This document shows positions 3-12,235 of a stretch of 14,872 bases of DNA, in pieces (the first letter of the stretch is position 1; the number at the start of each line of letters is the position of its first letter). The position numbers were made by a program, and so were the translations under genes. This DNA comes from Chthonomonadales bacterium (GTDB lineage Bacteria > Armatimonadota > Chthonomonadetes > Chthonomonadales > Chthonomonadaceae), in assembly GCA_038217285.1 (NCBI GenBank), contig JBBQPO010000154.1:1-14872 (forward strand). The letters run 5' to 3'. Under the pieces are notes generated by a model. That model was given only the letters and a program-made list of their open reading frames with translations. It was not told the origin of the DNA and searched no databases.

Positions 3-1148
3 GAATCCACGCTGCGTTCGTCCGACGTCGGCTATGACAACGCCCGGGTAACGGCGCGGATGGAAGCGTCTCTGAGCACGGCCCGCATCGCGGAGGCTGC
101 CGCGAAAGCCGCGCAGAGCGAAGCCGCCTTGCAGGCGGCCACTGCGAAACAGGAGCTTGTTCAGGCTGGCCCGCGCCGGCAGGAGCGTGAGCAGGCGACG
201 CTGGCGGTCTCACAGACAAAGGCCGGTCTTACGCTTGCTGACAACAATTTGAAGCGGATGCGCAGTCTCTTTCAGGAAGGCGCGATCTCCGCGCAGCAGT
301 TGGACCAGATCCAGGCGCAGTACGAGGTGGCAAAATCTCAGTTCGAGACGGCGCAGCAGGGCAAGAGTATCGTCGAGGAAGGCAGCCGCACCGAAGAGAT
401 CCGGGTGGCTCGGCAGACTGTCCTTCAGGCCCAAGCCGCCTTGCGGGAAGCCCAGGCGGGCCTGAAGTCGGCGCAGGCGAGCGCACTTCAGGCCGAGGTT
501 CGCAAGCAGGAGATCCAGGGCGCGCAGGCACGGATCGGTCAGGCTCAGGCCGGCCTCGATATGGCCAGGGTCACCCGTAACTACGCCGTTATCACCGCCC
601 CTTTCGACGGCATCATTACGAAACGCCTGGCGGATCCCGGCGCGATGGCAAGCCCGAGTCTGCCTTTGCTCCAACTTCAGGGCGGGGCGCTGCGATTGGA
701 AGCGGTCGTGCCGGAGAGTATTCTGGCCTCGGTGAGAAAGGGGATGGCCGTCCCTGTACACTTCGATGCTCTGCGGAACTCCTCCCTCACGGGGCATGTC
801 GTGGAGATCGCGCCTCAGGGAGACGCGAGCAGCCATACGTTCGTCGTGAAAATTACCCTGCCGCTCGGAAGCGGCGCGGTTGCCGGAATGTTCGGACGCG
901 CGCGCTTTACGACAGGATCCGAAAAACTGTTGTTGGTTCCTGCCTCGGCGGTCTTCGAGCGCGAGGGGCTGCACTACCTCTATACGGTGGATGACAACCG
1001 GATCGCCCGTCTGCGGATGATCACGGTGGGAGATACGGTTGGTCCACAGGTAACGGTCCTCTCCGGCTTGAATTCCGGCGAGCGCATCGTCACCACCGCT
1101 CCCCAACGGGTGACGGATGGCGTACGCGTTGTAGAAGAGACAAGGTGA
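3..1148 (+). CDS. RND efflux periplasmic adaptor (membrane fusion protein), 5'-partial
   Basis: Frame is open from base 3 (ESTLRSSDVGYDNARVTARM...), so ATG 60 is internal. Long Ala/Gln-rich alpha-helical hairpin, 'ITAPFDGII' lipoyl-half motif, 'PASAV' and 'VLSGLNSGERIV' C-terminal MFP motifs; 3 nt upstream of the RND permease. Confidence 0.93.
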   Translation, partial: ESTLRSSDVGYDNARVTARMEASLSTARIAEAAAKAAQSEAALQAATAKQELVQAGPRRQEREQATLAVSQTKAGLTLADNNLKRMRSLFQEGAISAQQLDQIQAQYEVAKSQFETAQQGKSIVEEGSRTEEIRVARQTVLQAQAALREAQAGLKSAQASALQAEVRKQEIQGAQARIGQAQAGLDMARVTRNYAVITAPFDGIITKRLADPGAMASPSLPLLQLQGGALRLEAVVPESILASVRKGMAVPVHFDALRNSSLTGHVVEIAPQGDASSHTFVVKITLPLGSGAVAGMFGRARFTTGSEKLLLVPASAVFEREGLHYLYTVDDNRIARLRMITVGDTVGPQVTVLSGLNSGERIVTTAPQRVTDGVRVVEETR

Positions 1149-1151
1149 ACG

Positions 1152-4100
1152 ATGCAGACCGATCCGGAAAAACCGACGTTTCAGGTGGGCATCGCCGGGC
1201 GGATAGCCGCCGCCTTCATCAACTCTAAGCTCACCCCGCTGATTATTATCGCCTCTCTGCTGCTCGGCGTTTTCGCGGTGCTGAAGACGCCGCGCGAGGA
1301 GGAACCGCAGATCATCGTGCCGCTTATGGACGTGATGGTCTCCCTGCCGGGCGCGACGGCGAAAGAGGTAGAGCAGCGCGTGACGAACCCGATGGAGAAG
1401 CTGCTCTGGGAGATACCCGGCGTCGAGTACCTCTACACGACCTCCAGCCCCGGCCAGAGTCTGGCGATTGTGCGGTTCTATGTCGGGCAGGACCAGGAGG
1501 CGGCCCTGGTGCGCCTGCGCGAAAAACTGCAGTCGCACTACGACATCATCCCGCCCGGGGCCTCTCTGCCGATCATCAAGCCGCGTTCCATCGACGACGT
1601 GCCGATCCTGGCGCTGACGCTGCACAGTTCTCACTACGACGCGGCCGCGCTGCGTCAGTTCGCGAGCCGCGTCGAGACGGCCGTCAAGCAGGTGGACAAC
1701 GTCTCGGAAACCATACTGATCGGCGGTCGGCGGAGGGAGATCGCCATTACGGTCGATAAGGATCGATTGACAGGCTTTGGCCTGACTCCGGACGGCGTGG
1801 CTCAGGCGCTTCAGGGGGCCAACCAGCGATCCCAGGCGGGAGTCTTCTCCCAGAACAACGCGGAGCTCTCCGTAAAAACAGGGGAGTTCTTGCGAACCTC
1901 CCAGGATGTCGGCAAGGTCGTGGTCGGCGCGGTCAACGGTCGCCCGGTCTTTGTAAGAGACATCGCCTCCGTACAGGATGGGCCGGAGGAGCCGAGCCAG
2001 GTTGTTCAGTTCGGTTATGGGCCTGCCGCCAAAAAGAGGGAGCCTGCGCTCGAACCTGCGGTGACTATCTCGGTCGCCAAGCGTCCCGGCAAGAACGCGG
2101 TAGACATCGCGAACGCCGTTTTGGCGAAGGTGGACAGTCTGAAAGGCCGACTGCTGCCCTCCGATGTAACGGTGACTGTGACCCGCAACTACGGCGAGAC
2201 CGCCGCCGAGAAATCAGGTGAGCTTCTCTACCACATGGGGATCGCAGTCGTCTCGGTCACGCTGCTCATCGCGATCACGCTAGGGAAAAAGGAGTCGCTG
2301 GTCGTGGCCGTCGCTATTCCGGTAACGCTGGCGCTGACCCTGCTGGTCTTCTATCTCTATGGCTACACCCTGAACCGCATCACGCTGTTCGCGCTGATCT
2401 TCTCCATCGGTATTCTGGTGGACGATGCGATCGTGGTCGTCGAGAACATCGTTCGCCACTACCGGATGCCGGACGGCGAGCGCCGACCGCCGCTCGAAGC
2501 CGCCATCCATGCCGTGGACGAGGTCGGCAACCCCACGATTCTGGCGACCTTCGCCGTCATCGCCGCGATCCTGCCGATGGCTTTCGTCGGTGGGCTGATG
2601 GGGCCATACATGCGCCCCATCCCGGTCGGAGCTTCGGCGGCGATGCTCTTCTCGCTCCTCATCGCCTTCATCGTCACCCCCTGGGCGGCGTACCGGCTGC
2701 TGCGGGGGGAGCACGGCAAATCTCACGGAGGCAAGCATGCACCGGGAACCGTGGAGGACGACGCCATGACCCGCCTCTATCGCCGGATCATGACCCCTTT
2801 GCTCCGCTCCTGGAAGGTGCGTACCGTCTTCTTCGTGAGCGTGATTGGCCTGCTTCTGGGCGCGATGGCGCTGGTCGGCTTCAAAGCTGTCACGGTCAAG
2901 ATGCTGCCGTTCGACAACAAGAACGAGTTTCAGATCATGGTGGATATGCCGACAGGAACGACCCTCGAACAGACGGCAGCCGCGACACGTGCGTTGGGAG
3001 ATTATGTGGCGACCATCCCCGAAGTCGAGAACTATCAACTGGTTGTCGGAACCTCCAGTCCCTACAACTTCAACGGCCTGGTGCGTCACTACTATCTGCG
3101 GAACCAGCCGTATCAGGCCGATATTCAGGTGAACCTCATCGGCAAAGGGGAGCGCAAAGCGCAGAGTCATGCCATCGCCAAACGGATCCGACCCGAGATC
3201 GAGCGGATCGCGAAGCGGTGGGGAGTACGCGTCAAGATCGCCGAAGTACCGCCTGGCCCTCCTGTGCTGGAGACGCTGGTGGCCGAAGTCTATGGCCCGA
3301 CCCCGGAGCGCAGAACGGCAGTCGCCCGGCAGGTGAAGCGGATCTTCGAGACAACCGACAGCGTCACCGACGTGGACTGGTATATGGACGACGACCAGCA
3401 GACCGTCCAGTTCGTAGTGGACGGCGAGAAGGCGGCGCTCAACGGAGTGGACACGCAGGCCGTCAACCGAACGCTCGAAATGGCCCTGGCAGGCGCCCAG
3501 GTCGGGCTGGCGCACGACGAGGCGGCAAGAGAAGATGTGCCGCTGCGGGTACGCCTTTCACGCGTGGACCGCAGCAGTTTGAATGGACTGGCGTCTCTTT
3601 CGGTCGCTGCAAAGGACGGCCGTCTGATACCGATCCGGGAACTCGTGAAGACGGTCGCGATCCCGACCGAGAAGGCGATCTACCATAAGAACCTGATGCC
3701 CGTCGTCTACGTTACCGGAGATGTGACCGGGCGGCAGGAGAGCCCCGTCTACGCCATCTTCGCCATGAACAACAAACTGGCCGACTTGCGACTGCCGGAA
3801 GGTTACAAGCTCAATGTTCTGAACATCGCCATGCCGTTCACCACCGACCGATTGGCGATGAAGTGGGACGGGGAGTGGCACATCACGCTGGAGGTGTTCC
3901 GGGATCTCGGCATCGCCTTCGCGGCCGTGTTGGTGCTGATCTATATCCTGGTGGTGGCCTGGTTCCAGTCGTTCACGACTCCCCTCGTCATCATGGCCCC
4001 GATCCCGCTGACGCTGGTGGGCATCCTGCCCGCCCATGCCCTGATGGGCGCGTTCTTCACCGCGACCTCGATGATCGGGTTTATCGCCGGGGCCGGCATC

Positions 4101-4457
4101 ATCGTGCGCAACTCCATCATTCTGGTGGACTTTATCGAGTTGCGACTGCGGGAGGGGATGCCGCTGGAACAGGCGGTCATCGATGCGGGGGCGACCCGTT
4201 TCCGCCCTATGCTTCTGACGGCAGCGGCGGTGATCGTCGGCTCGTTCGTCATTCTGTTCGATCCGATCTTTCAGGGACTCGCCATCGCGCTCATGGCGGG
4301 CGAGATCGCCTCCACGCTGCTCTCCCGCCTGGCGGTGCCTATACTCTACTATATGATGAAACGCCAGGAGCTGAGCCATAGCGCGCCTGTCAGCCTGCCG
4401 TCCGGCAAATCAACACCTCCAGGTGCGGATACCCCGAAACTGGCTGAAACACAGTGA
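1152..4457 (+). CDS. AcrB/AcrD/AcrF-family RND efflux permease
   Basis: 1101 aa with two hydrophobic TM clusters separated by large periplasmic domains; TM4 '[14 protein letters not shown]' (proton-relay Asp pair), '[12 protein letters not shown]' and 'RFRPMLLT' motifs. Confidence 0.96.
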
Positions 4458-4471
4458 ACCTGCAGAGAAGT

Positions 4472-4500
4472 CAGCCGACTTGCCACCAATCAGTCGGCTG
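4472..4500. repeat. Intergenic inverted repeat (stem-loop without U-tract)
   Basis: CAGCCGACT (4472-4480) / AGTCGGCTG (4492-4500): perfect 9-bp arms, 11-nt loop, between the permease stop and the DUF302 RBS. Confidence 0.6.
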
Positions 4501-4533
4501 GAAACGTACATCGGAATTAAGGAGAGAACAGAT

Positions 4534-4941
4534 ATGAACACTACGATAACACCGACCTATGGCCTCTCACTGACGCTCACGTCCACGTTTGACGAAACCA
4601 TGACGCGCGTCAAGGAGGCGTTTAAATCGGAAGGATTCGGCGTTCTAACCGAAATGAACGTACAATACACCCTGCGAGAAAAGATCGGACTGGAGATGGC
4701 TCCTTATACCGTGCTGGGGATGTGCAATCCTGACCTGGCGTCGCGCGCCATTGCGGCGGAACCCAACATCGGCCTGTTCCTGCCATGCAATGTGCTGTTG
4801 GCGCAACGCGGAGACCATGTGGAGGTAAGCGCACAGGACCCGCTCTTTATGGTTCCCATGACCGGTAATGAAGCCCTGCGGCCGATCGCTCAGGAGGCAC
4901 GGGAACGAATAGATCGCGCGCTCGCGCAGTTGCGGGCGTGA
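4534..4941 (+). CDS. DUF302 domain protein (135 aa)
   Basis: 'EGFGVLTEMNV', 'YTVLGMCNP' and 'IGLFLPCNV' are typical DUF302 motifs. Start moved from 4423 (which overlaps the permease) to ATG 4534, preceded by AAGGAG at 4519-4524. Confidence 0.9.
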   Translation: MNTTITPTYGLSLTLTSTFDETMTRVKEAFKSEGFGVLTEMNVQYTLREKIGLEMAPYTVLGMCNPDLASRAIAAEPNIGLFLPCNVLLAQRGDHVEVSAQDPLFMVPMTGNEALRPIAQEARERIDRALAQLRA

Positions 4942-5031
4942 TCGTACCGGTCGTCTCGCTTGAATAGAAAGCCTACGCAGGGAAAGACGGCAGCAACTGT
5001 CTTACCGGCGAGAAAGAGATAGGAAAATCGA

Positions 5032-5229
5032 ATGGACTGGTTGTATATCGTTGGTTTTGTGGCGTTCTGGCTGCTCTTGCAGCGCGTCATCCTGCCGAGA
5101 TTAGGCGTCTCGACTTGAATGGCGCCCGGCGCATGCGCGGTGGATCCGCGCCGAAAACAGCAGCAAACGGATGAGGAGATTTCTGCGGAACAGATCTCAG
5201 AACGGTCGGACATGACAGGGCGCAGGTGA
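5032..5229 (+). CDS. Small single-TM membrane protein, candidate selenoprotein (28 aa if UGA 5116-5118 is a stop; 65 aa if read as Sec)
   Basis: AGGA at 5021-5024, ATG 5032: MDWLYIVGFVAFWLLLQRVILPRLGVST-[UGA]-MAPGACAVDPRRKQQQTDEEISAEQISERSDMTGRR*. Fills the gap between DUF302 and the flavoprotein; absent from the ORF track. Confidence 0.65.
5135..5151 (+). promoter_or_regulatory. Candidate bacterial SECIS hairpin
   Basis: GCGCGG-TGGAT-CCGCGC: 6-bp all-GC stem with a G-containing apical loop beginning 22 nt after the in-frame UGA. Confidence 0.5.
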
Positions 5230-5246
5230 GGGAAGAAGAAGAACTC

Positions 5247-6917
5247 ATGAAGCAGAAAAGAGTACTGATCGTCGGCGGCGTCGCCGGGGGAGCAAGCGCA
5301 GCGGCCCGCGCCCGCCGACTGTCGGAAGAGGCGGAGATCCTGGTCTTTGAACGTGGTCCCCATGTCTCTTTCGCGAACTGTGGGCTGCCCTATTATGTAG
5401 GCGGCGAAATAAGTGACAGCAAAGATCTGGTGCTGCAGTCTCCGGAGGATCTTCACGCGCGCTTCAACCTGGATATAAGGGTGAACACAGAGGCGGTGCG
5501 CCTCGACCGCAACGAGAAGATCCTGGAGGTGCGCGATCTGCGCACCGGGGCCGTTGCGTACGAACCCTACGATGCGCTTCTGCTCTCTCCCGGCGCGAGC
5601 GCCATCAAGCCACGTATTCCCGGCATCGATCGCCCCGGTCACTTTACGCTCCGCACGGTGCCCGATACCCTTGCCATTTCCGCGTACATCGCTGAACATG
5701 GCGCACAGCGAGCGGTCGTTGTTGGGGGCGGCTACATCGGGATGGAGATGGTAGAACAGTTGGCACGGCGCGGACTGACCGTCTCCGTGGTCGAGGCACT
5801 GCCACAGGTCGTCGGGATCTTCGACGCCGAGATGGCGGCCTACCTGCATCGCGAACTCTCGGCAAACGGCGTCGATCTGCATCTCGGTGACAGCGTGGTC
5901 GCCTTCGAGGCTCCGGAAGAAGGAGAAGAGGCGGCGGCCTCTGTCGTCGTCCTCAAGAGCGGTGCAAGGCTGTCCGCCGACGTCGTCATCCTTGCCATGG
6001 GCGTACGCCCGGAGGTCGGGCTCGCGCATGCAGCCGGGCTGGAGATCGGCGCACTGGGCGGTATTCGCGTCGATAATCGGCTCCAGACAAGCGATCCACA
6101 TATCTGGGCAGTAGGAGATGCCATCGAGGTGCGGCACACCGTCACCGGAGAGTGGATGCTCATCGCTTTAGCCGGCCCGGCGAACCGGCAGGGACGCATC
6201 GCTGCCGACAACATTCTGGGCCGCCATTCCCTCTATGCAGGAACACTCGGCACCAGCATTCTGCGTCTGTTCGAGGTGACGGCGGCGGCGACAGGCGCCA
6301 ACGAGCGTATGCTCGACAAGGCCGGTATGGCTTATCAGGCGGTCCACCTCCATCCGAATGCGCATGCCGGATACTATCCTGGGGCCACACAGATCGCACT
6401 CAAACTGTTGTTCGCACCGGTATCCGGGAAAATTCTGGGGGCACAGGCCGTGGGACATTCTGGTGTGGACAAACGCATGGACGTCATCGCGACCGCGATC
6501 ATGGCGGAAATGACGGTTTCCGATCTTGCACAACTCGAACTCTCGTACGCTCCGCCCTTCGGGTCGGCCAAAGATCCGGTCAACCTCGCCGGCATGATCG
6601 CGGAGAATCTGCTTGCCGGCGATGTCGCGTCAGCCCAGTGGGACGAGGTCGAGAGTCTGGACGGCAACACCACTCTGCTGCTCGATGTGCGGCAGCCCGA
6701 GGAGTGGAACGAGGGACATATTCCCGGCGCGATTCCTATCCCGTTGACGGAGCTTCGAAATCGGTTGGTCGAACTTCCCGCAGACAGGGAGATCGTCGTC
6801 TACTGCCAGTCCGGCCAGAGATCGTACTATGCCTGCCGCATTCTTACGCAGAATGGCTTCCGATGCCGCAATCTGAGCGGCGCCTACCTGACCTGGTCCG
6901 CAGCCAGCGGACGATGA
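5247..6917 (+). CDS. CoA-disulfide reductase / NAD(P)H persulfide reductase-like flavoprotein with C-terminal rhodanese domain (CoADR-RHD/Npsr type)
   Basis: FAD motif 'IVGGVAGGAS', redox Cys in 'SFANCGLPY', NAD(H) motif 'GGGYIG..VVE', 'WAVGD', 'LSYAPPF', and rhodanese 'LLDVR...GHIPGA...VYCQSGQRS'. Start is ATG 5247 or GTG 5226. Confidence 0.93.
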   Translation: MKQKRVLIVGGVAGGASAAARARRLSEEAEILVFERGPHVSFANCGLPYYVGGEISDSKDLVLQSPEDLHARFNLDIRVNTEAVRLDRNEKILEVRDLRTGAVAYEPYDALLLSPGASAIKPRIPGIDRPGHFTLRTVPDTLAISAYIAEHGAQRAVVVGGGYIGMEMVEQLARRGLTVSVVEALPQVVGIFDAEMAAYLHRELSANGVDLHLGDSVVAFEAPEEGEEAAASVVVLKSGARLSADVVILAMGVRPEVGLAHAAGLEIGALGGIRVDNRLQTSDPHIWAVGDAIEVRHTVTGEWMLIALAGPANRQGRIAADNILGRHSLYAGTLGTSILRLFEVTAAATGANERMLDKAGMAYQAVHLHPNAHAGYYPGATQIALKLLFAPVSGKILGAQAVGHSGVDKRMDVIATAIMAEMTVSDLAQLELSYAPPFGSAKDPVNLAGMIAENLLAGDVASAQWDEVESLDGNTTLLLDVRQPEEWNEGHIPGAIPIPLTELRNRLVELPADREIVVYCQSGQRSYYACRILTQNGFRCRNLSGAYLTWSAASGR

Positions 6918-6945
6918 TACTCTCCTCAACACTATCTTTTATAAC

Positions 6946-6980
6946 TTGAGATACACTCTGTTTCATATCTATGGTAGAAT
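6946..6980 (+). promoter_or_regulatory. Putative sigma70-type promoter in an AT-rich intergenic tract
   Basis: Extended -10 TGgTAGAAT (6972-6980); alternatively TTGAGA (6946-6951) with an 18-nt spacer to TATGGT (6970-6975). Confidence 0.5.
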
Positions 6981-6989
6981 AGCCTTGAA

Positions 6990-7083
6990 CTATTTCGCCT
7001 GATATGATTTGTCGTTAAGCCCAGTATCCATGTTTTTTGCATTTAAGCGGTGGCGAAATAGAAGTGCTCCGTGTCTTGCACTT
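6990..7083 (+). other. Candidate structured 5' leader or ncRNA
   Basis: Perfect 10-bp inverted repeat CTATTTCGCC (6990-6999) / GGCGAAATAG (7052-7061) with possible inner pairing CGTTAAG / TTTAAGCG, directly followed by AAGTGC (7062-7067) / GCACTT (7078-7083). Confidence 0.4.
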
Positions 7084-7113
7084 GCCTCGTCGGCCTGCCT
7101 GAAGGAGAATCTC

Positions 7114-7308
7114 ATGCGATCCTGGCTCTGTGATGTCATTGGCTGCTCGGAAGTCGTCGCATGGGCGCGAGCGGCGCGAGTGGACGACTCTCCCGAAAAT
7201 TTTCTCTGCAATGCCTGCTGGCATGCACTGCGCGCCAACCACCCCGAGCGGACCACCTACTACACGGTATGCAATGCCGACCTTGCCACCCTCCCGGTTC
7301 AGCCCTGA
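7114..7308 (+). CDS. Small Cys-rich hypothetical protein (64 aa), possible Zn finger
   Basis: GAAGGAGA RBS at 7101-7108, ATG 7114; MRSWLCDVIGCSEVV...FLCNACWHAL..., i.e. Cx4C-x20-Cx2C. Confidence 0.65.
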   Translation: MRSWLCDVIGCSEVVAWARAARVDDSPENFLCNACWHALRANHPERTTYYTVCNADLATLPVQP

Positions 7309-7327
7309 TTCAAGTTCAAGAAGATCG

Positions 7328-8221
7328 TCAGCGCATCACCAGCACGGAGCAGTGGGCATGGTGCGCAACGCTATTGGAGACACTGCCGAGCAGCAGAGAA
7401 GTCAGAGCGCCCCGGCCCCGGGAGCCGAGGACGATCAGGCCGACGCCCAGGCGCCTGGCGAAGGCGGCAACGATCTCCGCAGGAGCACCTGTCTCCTGAT
7501 GACAGGAGCAGGCAACCCCGGTTCCTCTGGCTTCTGCACGAACGTCTGCGGTGATCTTCGCCAGCAGATGCTCCGCTCGGGAATACGGAGTCTCGCTGTC
7601 CGCGCCAAGATACGGCGACAGGCTGTAGGGAAGCGAAGCGCCGTCGAGCATATTGAGGACACGCAGAGAAGCGGCGAACTTTTGCGCGATCCCGACGGCA
7701 GCGACCGTGGCCTGAAGGGCGCCCTCCGAACCATCCGAAGCCAGCAGAACCTGCTGAAACGGAATTGGAATGTTACCCCGGACGATCAGGACAGGACAGT
7801 GGGCGTGATGCAGTACCCCTTCGGAGACACTGCCCAAGAGGAACGACGCCACATCGCTCACTCCTCGCCCGCCCAGCACAATCAAGTCTACGTCGTGCTG
7901 TTTGGCGACGCGAGTGATCGCCTCCACGGGACGACCGCATTCGAGCAAGGTTTCGTATTTAAGCCCGGCCTCCAGAAGAATTTTGCCGGTATGCTCGACC
8001 ATATCGCGCCGCGCTGTTTCGGCCTCTGCATCAAGCCCATCCTGACTGGCGGCAAACTCCCATCCCCCTCCTCCAAACGCCGGATACGCGGTGATGGCAG
8101 GGTCGTAGGTGTGTACCAGCACGACGGCGGAATGAAACGTTTGCGCGATCATCGCACCCATTCTCGTCGCCGCCAGGGCGCCTTCCGATCCATCCGAGCA
8201 GATCAAGATTTTGCTAAACAT
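7328..8221 (-). CDS. Universal stress protein, tandem two-domain (297 aa)
   Basis: Starts MFSKILICSDGS after an AGAAGGAG RBS; two USP domains with 'LGGRG...LLGSVS' and 'LGSRG...LLGSVS', each ending HAHCxVL. Confidence 0.93.
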   Translation of the reverse strand: MFSKILICSDGSEGALAATRMGAMIAQTFHSAVVLVHTYDPAITAYPAFGGGGWEFAASQDGLDAEAETARRDMVEHTGKILLEAGLKYETLLECGRPVEAITRVAKQHDVDLIVLGGRGVSDVASFLLGSVSEGVLHHAHCPVLIVRGNIPIPFQQVLLASDGSEGALQATVAAVGIAQKFAASLRVLNMLDGASLPYSLSPYLGADSETPYSRAEHLLAKITADVRAEARGTGVACSCHQETGAPAEIVAAFARRLGVGLIVLGSRGRGALTSLLLGSVSNSVAHHAHCSVLVMR

Positions 8222-8390
8222 GAGTCTCCTTCTTTCAGCCAGGTTGCCGTCAACAGGGTCGCTGCCGCTCAAAGCCGACCGGCATAAGAACCCATGGACG
8301 TATCGATTCATACCTGACCGCCCATTGCCGGAAACGCATGAGGTTCTCCTCTACGAACGAGCGAAGAGAGGCGCAAAACGATAGAGACCT

Positions 8391-8834
8391 CTATCGCATG
8401 ATCAGGACAGGGCAGGAGGCGTGGCGCAGTACGCCGTCGGAGACGCTGCCCAGGAGGAGAGTCTGCCAGTTGTTCAGACCGCGGCTGCCCAGTACGATCA
8501 GGTCTGCGTTTTCATCGTGCGCGATGGCGAGGATCCGGTCGACCGGGTGGCCGATCTCACGGCGGCACTCGTAGCGCAGTTTCGCAGCATCCAAGATGGC
8601 ACCGGTCTTCTCCTCGACGACTGTATGCAGTTCGGCGGCGTAACAACCCAGATTGCCGTCTGCCTCCGTGACGGATACCGGCAGGCCCGCGAAGGGGATC
8701 GGTATGTGGGCAGGATCGAACACACTCAGCAGAACGACGTGCGAATCGAATTTTTGGGCGATCTCGGCGGCCGCCCGGGCCGCAGCCAGAGCATGTTCGG
8801 AGCCGTCCGAACAGAGAACAATTTTACGGAACAT
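8391..8834 (-). CDS. Universal stress protein, single domain (147 aa)
   Basis: MFRKIVLCSDGS start aligns with the paralogue starts; 'ADLIVLGSRG...LLGSVSDGVLRHASCPVL'. Confidence 0.93.
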   Translation of the reverse strand: MFRKIVLCSDGSEHALAAARAAAEIAQKFDSHVVLLSVFDPAHIPIPFAGLPVSVTEADGNLGCYAAELHTVVEEKTGAILDAAKLRYECRREIGHPVDRILAIAHDENADLIVLGSRGLNNWQTLLLGSVSDGVLRHASCPVLIMR

Positions 8835-8868
8835 CGTTTTAGGATCCTTTCCCATCCGGAAACTGTTT

Positions 8869-9078
8869 CTATCGATTTTTCCAGCGGCGGGGAGCCGGTT
8901 CATAGCAGGCGACCCGTCCATCCAGGCTGGCTGGCAGGGTATCTTCCCTGTCCAGGACGATCTCACGATTCGAGTCGACTTGCCGGTAAACGCCGCGGGG
9001 AGCGCGTTCCCCAGCCAGGTAGAGGTCGCCTTCCCGTGGTTCTTTCAGAGTGGCGCCTGTTTTTGCGAATGTCGGCAT
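8869..9078 (-). CDS. Small hypothetical protein (69 aa), YjzC-like motif
   Basis: TAAGGAG RBS, ATG 9078; 'YLAGERAPRGVY...IVLDREDTLP' resembles the G-x2-AP-x-GxY...xP pattern of YjzC-like proteins (judged by eye). Confidence 0.7.
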   Translation of the reverse strand: MPTFAKTGATLKEPREGDLYLAGERAPRGVYRQVDSNREIVLDREDTLPASLDGRVACYEPAPRRWKNR

Positions 9079-9300: not shown

Positions 9301-11214
9301 ATGTCTCTTGAGATCGCGAAAATGCCTGCGCCAAGTACGCCTGTGAAAATCAGCAGCCCCCCTCCGAACCGTTTACAGGGGGGGATCGCCGCGCTCGCCC
9401 TGCTCGGAATCGCCCTGCACCTGATCGTACGCTTTGGCTTTCCTGGCCTGTCAGGAACAGGAGGGTTCTCGCTGCGTGATCTCCCGCTGCTGGTTGTCCT
9501 GGTACTGGGCGGCACCCCCCTCGTGATCGGCTTGCTGAGGAAACTGGCCCGCAAAGAGTTCGGTTCCGACCTGCTGGCTGGCATCTCGATTGTGACTTCG
9601 GTTCTGCTGCACGAGTATCTGGCCGGGGCACTGGTCGTGCTGATGCTCTCGGGCGGCGAAGCGCTGGAAGCCTATGCCACGCGCAGCGCCTCCTCGGTTC
9701 TGCAGGCGCTGGCAAAGCGGATGCCCACGTTGGCACAACGCAAGGAAGGTGAAAACCTGATCGAGGTTCCCCTGGAGGACGTGAAGATCGGAGATGTGCT
9801 GGTGGTGTTTCCCCATGCCCTATGCCCCGTAGATGGAACTGTCACGGAGGGACACGGCACCATGGACGAATCCTATCTGACCGGAGAGCCGTACCAGGTG
9901 TCCAAAGCGCCGGGAATCGCGGTTCTGTCGGGCGCGATCAATGGGGATGCGGTGATTACGATCCGCTGCGACAGGCCGGCCCACGATTCGCGCTATGCCA
10001 AAATCATGCAGGTGATGCGCGACTCGGAGCAGCAGCGTCCTCATCTGCGACGCCTGGGAGACCAGTTGGGCGCGTGGTATACGCCGATTGCCGTCGGAAT
10101 CGCGGTCGTCGCGTGGGCGCTGGCAGGCGATCCGCACCGTTTCCTGGCGGTAATGGTGGTCGCGACTCCGTGTCCGCTTCTGATCGCGATCCCCGTCGCC
10201 ATCATCGGCTCCATCTCCCTGGCCGCCCGGCTGGGCATCATCATCAAAGATCCATCGGTGCTGGAGAAGATCAGTACGTGTCGTGTCGCCATCTTCGACA
10301 AGACTGGCACCCTCACCTATGGCAGGCCGAAGCTGACCGAAATTCTGCTCGCGGACGGCTTCGAGAGGAACGAAATGCTTGCGCTCGTCGCCGGCCTGGA
10401 GCGCTATTCCAAACATCCGCTCTCCGGAGCGATACTGGAGGCCGCCACCAAGGCAGGCGTCTCTTTACAGGATGCCGCCGAAGCGCGGGAACTGCCGGGA
10501 GATGGGGTGCGCGGGACGATCGGCGGGCGCACCATTCATGTGACGGGTCGGGGGAAAATGGCGCAGCTCTATCCGGATCTTGTCGGCTCTCTCCCCGCTG
10601 TTTCGGCAGGCATGGAGTGCGTCATCATCGTGAATGGAAAGTACGCCGCCACGTTTCGTTTCCGAGACGAACCGCGCCCCGAGGGCGCGCACTTCATCCA
10701 GCACCTGAGTCCGAAACACCATGTGCAGCGCGTGATGCTCGTCTCGGGAGACCGCGAAGCGGAAGTCTCCTACCTGGCAGAGCGTGTCGGCATCACCGAA
10801 GTGTTTGCCAGTCAGAGTCCAGAGCAGAAGCTGGCTCTGGTGCGCGCCGAGACTGTGAAAGCGCCGACGGTATTCCTGGGCGACGGCATCAACGATGCGC
10901 CCGCTCTGACGGCAGCAACGGTGGGGATCGCCTTCGGCAACGGTGAGATCACCAGCGAGGCGGCCGATGCCGTCATTCTGGACAGTTCCCTGGGGAAGGT
11001 GGACGTGCTTTTTCATATCGGACGACGGATGCGAACCATCGCGCTGCAGAGCGCCGTCGGAGGAATGGCCTTGAGCGGAGTGGGGATGCTGCTGGCCGCG
11101 ACGGGCCATCTCACGCCGGTCGCGGGCGCTGTCGGGCAGGAGATCATCGATGTCCTTGCGGTGCTGAACGCGCTGCGCGCGGCGATCCCACCGAAAGCGC
11201 TTTCAGACTACTGA
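9301..11214 (+). CDS. Heavy-metal P1B-type ATPase, P1B-5-like
   Basis: 'LTGEP', 'ATPCPL', 'FDKTGTLT' phosphorylation site, 'SKHPL', '[10 protein letters not shown]' and 'QEIID' in the last TM; no N- or C-terminal metal-binding domain. Start 9301 or 9322. Confidence 0.93.
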
Positions 11215-11347: not shown

Positions 11348-12235
11348 ATGTTCAAAACTATTCTTGTCTGTTCCGATGGTTCGGATTCGGCGCTGAAGGC
11401 GGCTCGGACCGCCGCCCGCATCGCCTGCGAGTCCGGTTCCAAGTTGATTCTGCTCAATGTTTTCGATGATAGTATCTCCTCCCTGCCCTATCTCGGGGTA
11501 TGGGAACTGGGAATCCCAAAGGAAGATTTCGTGCAGTACGCTTCGCGGGTTCAGCAGCATGCCGAGGCGCGAACAGCCGCCGTTTTTGCAGAGGCCAACG
11601 TGCCGTTCCTGCCGCTGCGGGAGATTGGAAACCCGGTCGAGATCATCCTGAGCGTGGCCGAACGCAGAAACGCCGACCTGATCGTGATGGGCAGCCGCGG
11701 ACTGGGCGGCTTCAAGAGCCTGACGCTGGGCAGCGTCTCCGACGGGGTCGCGCATCATGCCTCCTGCCCGGTCCTGATCGAGCGGGGAAACACCACCGCG
11801 TTCCGTCGAATCCTGCTCGCTTCGGATGGTTCCACGGAGGCGCAGCAAGCCTCCTCTGCCGCCTTTGCGCTGGCGAAGTGGTTTGGCGCCGAACTCACCG
11901 TTCTGAATGTGTTCGAGCCCTTCGGCCCGGTCGCAGCGGTCGACTACCAGCCCGATTCTGCGGCAGCCTTCGCAGAGCAGTCTGATAGAGAGAAAACGTA
12001 TCGGGCGGTCGAGGAGAGTCTGAAGCCTGCGGAAAAGGAGACCGGGATTCCCTACTTTATGCACCAGGAGAGAGGGCATCCGGCGAAAGCCATCACCGAC
12101 TATGCCGACCTCGGTAAGTTCGATCTCGTTGTCCTCGGCAATCGCGGGCTGGGGGGGTTCGACCGACTGCTGCTGGGCAGCGTCTCGGATGCCGTGCTGC
12201 ATCATGCCAACAGTCTGGTGATGATCGTCCGCTGA
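11348..12235 (+). CDS. Universal stress protein, tandem two-domain (295 aa)
   Basis: GGGAGG RBS; MFKTILVCSDGS; 'MGSRGLGGFKSLTLGSVS' and 'LGNRGLGGFDRLLLGSVS'. Confidence 0.94.
   Translation: MFKTILVCSDGSDSALKAARTAARIACESGSKLILLNVFDDSISSLPYLGVWELGIPKEDFVQYASRVQQHAEARTAAVFAEANVPFLPLREIGNPVEIILSVAERRNADLIVMGSRGLGGFKSLTLGSVSDGVAHHASCPVLIERGNTTAFRRILLASDGSTEAQQASSAAFALAKWFGAELTVLNVFEPFGPVAAVDYQPDSAAAFAEQSDREKTYRAVEESLKPAEKETGIPYFMHQERGHPAKAITDYADLGKFDLVVLGNRGLGGFDRLLLGSVSDAVLHHANSLVMIVR

Follow-up and report, generated by a model that had tools for sequence, protein, structure and literature searches.

The small gene and its in-frame TGA codon

The analyzed stretch of DNA (14,872 nucleotides of contig JBBQPO010000154.1 from a Chthonomonadales bacterium, assembly GCA_038217285.1; hereafter, the window) carries on its plus strand a small gene (5032–5229; 65 codons and the stop codon TGA at 5227–5229) that, judging from its sequence and from orthologues with the same layout, very probably encodes a genuine selenoprotein. 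The putative ribosome-binding site AGGA (5021–5024, plus strand) was read directly 7 nt upstream of the ATG at 5032, and an in-frame TAG (5020–5022) shuts the frame on the 5' side of this ATG. Codons 1–28 correspond to MDWLYIVGFVAFWLLLQRVILPRLGVST, codon 29 is TGA (5116–5118), and the 36 sense codons that follow correspond to MAPGACAVDPRRKQQQTDEEISAEQISERSDMTGRR, beginning with MAPGACAVDPRRKQ and ending at the TGA at 5227–5229. The first TGA is read here as selenocysteine (Sec), residue 29, on the basis of the codon column in a phylum-wide sample, a TGT codon at this column in one genome (G154), and Cys at this column in database representatives. The codon TGC at 5134–5136 encodes Cys35, the partner of Sec29 in a U-x5-C arrangement, which is invariant across 71 aligned Sec and Cys forms. 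According to the alignments and the structure model, residues 36–65 (5137–5226) comprise a conserved AVDPR segment and a variable charged tail predicted to be coil. A hairpin resembling a selenocysteine insertion sequence (SECIS) is located at 5135–5151 of the plus strand, with a stem formed by 5135–5140 and 5146–5151 (GCGCGG/CCGCGC) and the loop UGGAU (5141–5145) starting 22 nt after the UGA. An earlier reading of the window made from its letters alone (the sequence-only reading) had proposed the start site with its ribosome-binding site, the UGA with 36 further open codons, and the hairpin; translation and inspection of the window confirmed all three.

The read-through protein with U replaced by C was used as a query over 61 related genomes. 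All 17 places found at E ≤ 1e-6 had exactly one in-frame TGA, and the alignments continued beyond it. A start codon was present 28–29 codons upstream of the TGA in every extracted locus, and the extracted loci shared the motif LPxLG[VI][PS]T-U-x(4-10)-C-AVEPR. A profile built from 18 such sequences was used for searches of the class, the phylum, and protein databases. The gene was found in 21 of the 68 genomes of the class, with TGA in 22 of 22 places, and, in a phylum-wide sample of 401 genomes, in 56, with TGA in 56 of 59 places (54 TGA-form genomes); the sampled genomes are kin, and these counts do not represent independent events. As for the three places without TGA, G154 has TGT (Cys) at the column, the match in G219 stops just before a TGA, and the match in G187 is weak. 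Beyond the TGA, frame 0 is open for 16–42 codons in 35 of 35 loci, compared with at least 15 open codons in 24 and 21 of the 35 loci for the other two frames (three loci were dropped from this count, their frames having run off the end). Four residues (L21, P22, G25, and C35) do not vary in the joint alignment of the 71 Sec and Cys forms, and conservation is 90% or more at L16, at T28, and in the Sec/Cys column. Homologues therefore keep the TGA at residue 29, with conservation carrying on beyond it, a check that the sequence-only reading had suggested.

The profile search of representative proteins gave 1503 matches at E ≤ 0.001 and 58 at E ≤ 1e-10. Cys occupies the Sec column in 116 of the best 150 representatives, and 95 of those 116 have a second Cys four residues on (TCMSGxC). 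Trp was found at the column in 21 of the best 150 (P0008, P0031, P0044, P0058, and P0065 are among the Trp-bearing representatives), and several also end in Trp; this fits TGA having been translated as Trp during gene calling. Two of the best 150 end at the Sec column, and a few have R, S, or G there. In a second collection, 69 of the 109 newly listed relatives stop at the TGA position, with a length of 28–31 residues, 32 of the 109 have Cys at the column, and all names given by the source are "hypothetical protein". In total, Cys forms make up more than 100 protein clusters and TGA-ended forms at least 69. The record titles of the Cys forms name Planctomycetales/Planctomycetaceae, Myxococcales, Deltaproteobacteria, Chloroflexota, Bacteroidota, Desulfobacteraceae, and Cyanobacteriota. 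Cys-aligned homologues, for which the sequence-only reading had called, are thus numerous in both collections and include the TGT form of G154, and its expectation that gene callers would cut the gene short is borne out by the 69 short entries.

A word search with the read-through protein as a single sequence gave no matches, and the relatives were obtained with profile searches. A dedicated search for longer fused forms found none, which is weak evidence. In one database representative, P0112 (208 aa), the small membrane protein is joined to a thioredoxin; this fusion may be a gene-calling run-through. In locus L033, a thioredoxin gene (1702–2178) lies directly 3' of the Sec-form gene.

The host genome (6.2 Mb, 459 contigs, 95% complete) encodes SelA (523 bits), SelB (396 bits), SelD, and tRNA-Sec (73 bits), all above the cut-offs; SelD carries its own single in-frame TGA. 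The search for Sec genes proposed in the sequence-only reading was therefore positive for selA, selB, selD, and tRNA-Sec. The genes for tRNA-Sec, SelD, and SelA are located within about 6 kb on contig C99 of genome G000 (2297–8015), and selB is located on contig C189. Across the phylum sample, SelA was found in 218 of 401 genomes versus 51 of the 54 TGA-form genomes. Among the three TGA-form genomes lacking SelA, G050 and G283 have SelB above the cut-off, and G300 (72% complete) does not. In G154 (88% complete), the sole Cys-form genome of the sample, neither SelA nor SelB was found above the cut-off.

The short database entries are also what one would see if the UGA were an ordinary stop, the product a 28-residue membrane peptide, and the hairpin and open frame either regulatory or a chance spacer; public gene calls do end there, and the hairpin of the window is unremarkable by energy (see below). 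We consider this explanation very improbable. The Cys codons at the column in more than 100 protein clusters are followed by a frame running to the conserved second Cys, and the post-TGA frame is open in all 35 loci counted. SelA or SelB accompanies the TGA form in 53 of 54 genomes, compared with SelA in 218 of 401 overall. Because the gene sits in many different contexts, the sequence 3' of the TGA is no spacer that belongs to a particular neighbor. In addition, there is no T run after the hairpin, and no promoter-like or terminator-like site was found at 4850–5350; a role of the hairpin as an intrinsic terminator was ruled out on the same grounds.

The hairpin downstream of the TGA codon

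Taken alone, the hairpin of the window is not beyond chance in such G+C-rich sequence: its energy is −11.6 kcal/mol, and the best fold holding it reaches −16.8 kcal/mol versus an optimum of −18.2 kcal/mol. Since it is unexceptional by energy, the case for a SECIS-like element rests on comparison with relatives. Pairs were counted on the stated structure in 37 aligned sequences, from the UGA to +48. The seven-pair helix was paired in 86.3% of cells versus 18–59% with the partner columns slid; compensatory (two-sided) changes were detected in six of the seven pairs, and none of 500 shuffles reached the observed covariation score. Variant stems with G-rich loops were found in L032 (GCUCGG/CCGAGC), L037 (UGCGGGAC/GUCUCGCA), and one genus (UUGCGCGAA/UUCGCGCAA). 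In L030, an insertion displaces the Cys codon, and a different 9-bp hairpin with the loop GGGU is found at the usual distance from the UGA; as this distance is kept despite the displaced Cys codon, the position of the hairpin follows the UGA and not the peptide.

A strict scan (at least five uninterrupted pairs, −5 kcal/mol or better) detected a hairpin in 34 of the 38 TGA forms, with the loop starting 17–23 nt after the UGA; the bacterial SECIS (bSECIS) model allows a distance of 16–37 nt. All 34 hairpins carry G at one of the first two loop positions, and the loop contains GG in 33 of them. Mononucleotide shuffling produced a hairpin of this kind in 155 of 760 sequences, and in 55 of the 760 its loop contained GG. 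The natural sequences were also compared with synonymous recodings drawn from the codon usage of each locus (L022, with too few long open reading frames, was dropped): 35 of 37 fold better than their recodings, with a mean z of −1.71, and the window itself has z = −1.30. The position and loop G of the hairpin claimed in the sequence-only reading are thus conserved, with compensatory changes in its stem, and the copy in the window is itself unexceptional by energy.

Several observations weigh against a SECIS function of the hairpin and against the selenoprotein assignment. The lowest-energy fold of 5116–5165 is another structure, with z = 0.15 relative to dinucleotide shuffles, and much of the window hairpin follows from the peptide CAVDPR in G+C-rich codon usage. 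A clean hairpin is missing from four of the 38 TGA forms. The nine Cys-form loci have a mean z of −0.74 relative to recodings; as they also fold somewhat better, folding energy separates Sec and Cys forms weakly. In the Cys-form locus L071, a hairpin of 9 bp with the loop GGC persists 19 nt past the Cys codon. RNAalifold returned no structure for the 37-sequence alignment, and a search of Rfam at permissive E-values gave chance-level matches and no SECIS family. Two TGA forms, L053 (UMTNSSHVESR...) and L072 (URIDSKPAAG...), have no downstream Cys. Finally, kinship among the related genomes means that the counts exaggerate the amount of independent support.

Locus L071 (G154:C465, minus strand, about 1301–1453) is the sole Cys form (TGT) in the phylum sample and may have switched from Sec to Cys recently, once the Sec machinery had been lost, with the hairpin as a leftover. 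The Planctomycetales Cys form L074 (plus strand, about 1523–1570; C-A-V-S-P-H) has a GUGCGGUG/CACCGCAC-type hairpin like the SECIS of Sec forms. L072 has a strong hairpin with the loop CGGGA 22 nt past the TGA.

The 65-residue membrane-anchored selenoprotein proposed in the sequence-only reading is supported by the conservation of the TGA, the Cys homologues, the hairpin, and the Sec genes of the host. The UGA at 5116–5118 would be decoded as selenocysteine by the SelA, SelB, SelD, and tRNA-Sec of the host, steered by the hairpin inside the coding sequence with its G-containing apical loop about 20 nt past the UGA. Translation would end at the TGA at 5227–5229, which leaves 17 nt up to the ATG at which the next gene probably starts.

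Predicted membrane topology, genomic neighborhoods, and possible role

According to AlphaFold2 modeling with the 71-sequence alignment, residues 2–24 (5035–5103, plus strand), which include the conserved L16, L21, and P22, form a single predicted transmembrane helix, with mean pLDDT (predicted local distance difference test) values of 95 and 88 in the first two ten-residue blocks; beyond it, the model contains coil with pLDDT of 56–70 and no secondary structure. Across the 71 sequences, the flank before the helix contains on average 0.32 K+R and 0.92 D+E residues, and the 24 residues from the LP motif onward contain on average 3.03 K+R; K+R is higher after the helix than before it in 63 of the 71. 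By the positive-inside rule, this bias predicts an N-out, C-in topology, which would place Sec29 and Cys35 at the cytoplasmic membrane surface, possibly within reach of thioredoxin and flavoprotein reductases. The modeled helix would thus leave a short acidic N-terminus outside and a disordered charged tail behind the Sec/Cys pair. A signal peptide or lipoprotein precursor was considered and rejected: the N-terminal flank is not positive, and G-V-[PS]-T before Sec/Cys is no lipobox when compared with the lipobox consensus.

The gene order in the window is RND adaptor, RND permease, DUF302 gene, small gene, and CoA-disulfide reductase-rhodanese gene. The RND efflux pump (60–4457, plus strand; adaptor 60–1148, permease 1152–4457) was identified by the Pfam models HlyD_D23 and ACR_tran; among NCBIfam models, it matched RND_mfp, and RND_permease_2 remained under its cut-off. 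The upstream neighbor (4423–4941, plus strand) is a DUF302 protein (PF03625, E 4e-21), for which the later ATG at 4531 may be the start. Its frame from the GTG at 4423 overlaps the RND permease gene, whose stop codon is at 4457, and the conserved DUF302 part opens near ATG 4531 (MNTTITPTYG...), in agreement with the start region of the L021 homologue.

The downstream neighbor (5247–6917, plus strand) is a CoA-disulfide reductase-rhodanese fusion with matches to Pfam Pyr_redox_2, Pyr_redox_dim, and Rhodanese; TIGR03385 scores 471.6 bits, under its cut-off of 578.8. The sequence-only reading had this gene overlap the small gene at GTG 5226. The frame is indeed open from there, but the gene more probably starts at ATG 5247, because the reductase domain begins only at residue 12 of the GTG frame, where both the CoA-disulfide reductase model and Pyr_redox_2 start; in the orthologous locus L020, the domain starts at residue 5. 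The active-site segment of the enzyme is SFANCGLP, i.e., a Cys form; Sec forms (UGxP) of the CoA-disulfide reductase-rhodanese family are also listed in a 2026 review of the prokaryotic selenoproteome (hereafter, the 2026 review).

Further downstream, three universal stress protein (Usp) genes, two of them with tandem domains, lie around a P-type ATPase gene (7328–8311 and 8391–8966, minus strand; 11,348–12,235, plus strand). The ATPase (9301–11,214) is of the heavy-metal type (TIGR01525, 482 bits), with no match to an N-terminal metal-binding domain. An upstream selenocysteine metal-binding extension of this ATPase was ruled out by in-frame TAA/TAG stops, and the region upstream is taken by the opposite-strand Usp genes.

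The neighbors of the 38 Sec-form loci were analyzed with Pfam over about 1.5 kb on each side. DUF302 was found in three loci (a fourth, L021, was recognized by eye only), a Pyr_redox_2 enzyme in three, thioredoxin in two, a metallo-beta-lactamase-fold protein in two, an ArsR regulator in two (L022 and L058), and TauE and a YeeE-type sulfur transporter in one each. Among the nine Cys-form genome loci, a fusion of metallo-beta-lactamase and double rhodanese, built like persulfide dioxygenase-rhodanese enzymes, immediately precedes the gene in L077, L079, and L080 and is near it without adjoining it in L074; the records of these four loci belong to Planctomycetota and Chloroflexota. Genes for thioredoxin, rhodanese-YgaP, TauE, and Pyr_redox_2 proteins also occur around the Cys-form genome loci, and L078 has thioredoxin together with a DsbD-type protein.

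These recurring sulfur and redox neighbors suggest a membrane-tethered selenol/thiol redox or sulfane-sulfur relay. The U-x5-C pair, which the sequence-only reading took for a redox or metal-binding pair, may be either; the usual spacing in Cys forms is four residues. The Sec/Cys pair could cycle between selenol/thiol and selenenylsulfide or carry sulfane sulfur, it could be serviced by soluble partners such as thioredoxin, the CoA-disulfide reductase-rhodanese, and persulfide dioxygenase-rhodanese, and the small protein could be part of a membrane response to reactive sulfur species; we give these steps a roughly even chance. The combination of a selenoprotein with the proposed redox or sulfur role is, overall, a probable explanation of the locus. 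That the role lies in sulfur/thiol redox handling rather than with metals or the efflux pump is, taken by itself, a possibility just short of evenly balanced. The varied context speaks against it: at least one sulfur or redox neighbor occurs in only 10 of the 38 Sec-form loci, and five Sec-form loci have an RND permease instead of, or beside, such a neighbor. In one genus, the small gene has an unrelated but conserved context. A more specific form of this reading is tentative: the small protein may represent the first family of single-pass membrane selenoproteins to be described in bacteria, a membrane-tethered selenol that would pick up sulfane sulfur or oxidizing equivalents at the inner membrane face and hand them over to rhodanese-fused enzymes or thioredoxin, linking transporters and quinone-linked sulfide oxidation to cytoplasmic detoxification.

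The RND permease of those five loci (L019, L020, L023, L031, and L037) is directly upstream of the small gene and on the same strand, as is that of the Cys-form loci L082, L098, and L102, and a single-helix membrane protein of this size would suit an accessory subunit of the pump, in the style of AcrZ and AcrB, in which the Sec/Cys pair of a genuine selenoprotein would sense or modulate pump activity. Such a function seems quite unlikely, given that most loci have no pump in the stretch examined, that neither AcrZ nor other Pfam families were matched, and that the conserved Sec/Cys segment past the helix would not be explained by it. In L082 and L098, the interval from the RND permease to the Cys-form small gene contains Usp genes; the former locus belongs to the Cys-form genome loci and the latter to the metagenome loci, as does L102.

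Other neighbors would be in line with a genuine selenoprotein in which a soft metal or metalloid (species of Hg, Cd, As, Se, or Te) is bound by the Sec/Cys pair. Much as MerT does with its Cys pair on the cytoplasmic side, the protein would give the metal to, or receive it from, transporters and enzymes of the cytoplasm at the inner membrane face. ArsR-family regulators adjoin the gene not only in L022 and L058 but also in the metagenome loci L086, L097, and L099, heavy-metal-type P-type ATPases occur in the window and in L080, TehB-like and other methyltransferases are located near the gene in L026 and L030, and DUF305 in L053; the 2026 review implicates many transporter-associated selenoproteins in metal or metalloid resistance. 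However, ArsR also adjoins persulfide dioxygenase-rhodanese genes, which fits persulfide sensing equally well, the ATPase of the window lacks a match to an N-terminal metal-binding domain, and multidrug-type models give the RND pump a higher score than does the CusA/CzcA model. No match to the MerT model was obtained at the locus, and the small protein has one helix, not three. Metal binding is therefore regarded as an unlikely function of the pair, and the sulfur/thiol redox role remains the preferred one.

Comparison with known families and systems

Searches of Pfam and NCBIfam (June 2026) at E ≤ 1 with the protein, 17 aligned orthologues, and 11 Cys forms gave only chance matches to hydrophobic segments, as did a sequence search of the PDB. 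In the ESM Atlas, the Cys homologue P0004 matched only a nameless cluster of 123 members, most frequent in Planctomycetota, with a score of 0.88. Table 1 of the 2026 review lists 119 families and subfamilies with their motifs, and a small membrane protein with T-U-x4-6-C is not among them; BSepDB (2026) holds previously reported families only. Full-text searches found no small or single-pass bacterial membrane selenoproteins, with Haft & Tolstoy 2025 (mSystems) and Deng et al. 2026 (Cell Reports) outside this comparison; the families of the former were compared through the review table only, and either paper could mention the family. The mode of UGA decoding is ordinary; what is new is the family, together with its membrane architecture of a single helix.

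With this gene, the bacterial selenoproteome would gain a widespread family in which a single-helix micro-protein takes the place of a thioredoxin-like enzyme. Its TGA form is present in 54 of the 401 sampled genomes of the phylum, which is about a quarter of the SelA-bearing ones, and it has been missed so far because gene callers stop at residue 28. Many database entries of 28–31 residues named "hypothetical protein" would be truncated selenoproteins, and the larger unannotated Cys family (Planctomycetota, Myxococcota, Chloroflexota, Bacteroidota, and Desulfobacterota) would gain a name and a testable role. Should the tie to sulfur stress be real, a missing membrane-side component of persulfide handling would have been identified. 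A profile made from the small-protein sequences would allow annotation pipelines to call the full gene.

The small protein resembles other bacterial selenoproteins of the Sec...Cys type (the UxxC thioredoxin-like families and TsoA) in its conserved in-frame UGA with Cys at the column in homologues, in the G-loop hairpin just 3' of the UGA, in its occurrence in Sec-using anaerobe lineages, and in a nearby second Cys suggesting a selenenylsulfide. Unlike the UxxC families, it has one membrane helix and a disordered tail in place of the thioredoxin fold, and has a spacing of four to six residues (longer in a few members) instead of two. The nearest motif in Table 1 of the review is that of TsoA (LULAxC, NF045695), and its model was unmatched. 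More generally, NCBIfam selenoprotein models, NF045695 included, gave no match at E ≤ 1 with the 18 members or the Cys forms.

Two membrane systems offer a likeness in arrangement. In MerT, a cytoplasmic-side Cys pair near a membrane helix passes a soft metal to a flavoprotein disulfide reductase, and its membrane-proximal segment C-x5-C-A-[IV]-P resembles U-MAPGA-C-AVDP of the small protein; the next gene in the window belongs to the same reductase superfamily. In contrast to MerT (PF02411), the small protein has no Cys pair inside the membrane and a single helix instead of three. The PF02411 model gave one weak match elsewhere in the whole genome, and membership in this family was not indicated by any Pfam match for the small protein or the 11 Cys forms. 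AcrZ is a small single-helix membrane partner of the RND permease AcrB, proteins of this type being encoded or co-regulated with an RND pump, and the likeness lies in size, the single helix, and the RND permease directly upstream in 5 of the 38 Sec-form loci and several Cys-form loci. No sequence relation between the two proteins was found, the pump is absent from most loci, and the Sec/Cys segment has no counterpart in AcrZ.

A further likeness in overall plan is found in eukaryotes. SELENOK and SELENOS are small proteins of the endoplasmic reticulum with one N-terminal helix and a disordered charged cytosolic tail containing Sec. The similarity to the small protein concerns architecture only, without a Pfam match. 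The eukaryotic proteins have Sec near the C-terminus and a SECIS in the 3' untranslated region, whereas in the small protein Sec is placed beside the membrane and the SECIS-like hairpin lies inside the coding sequence.

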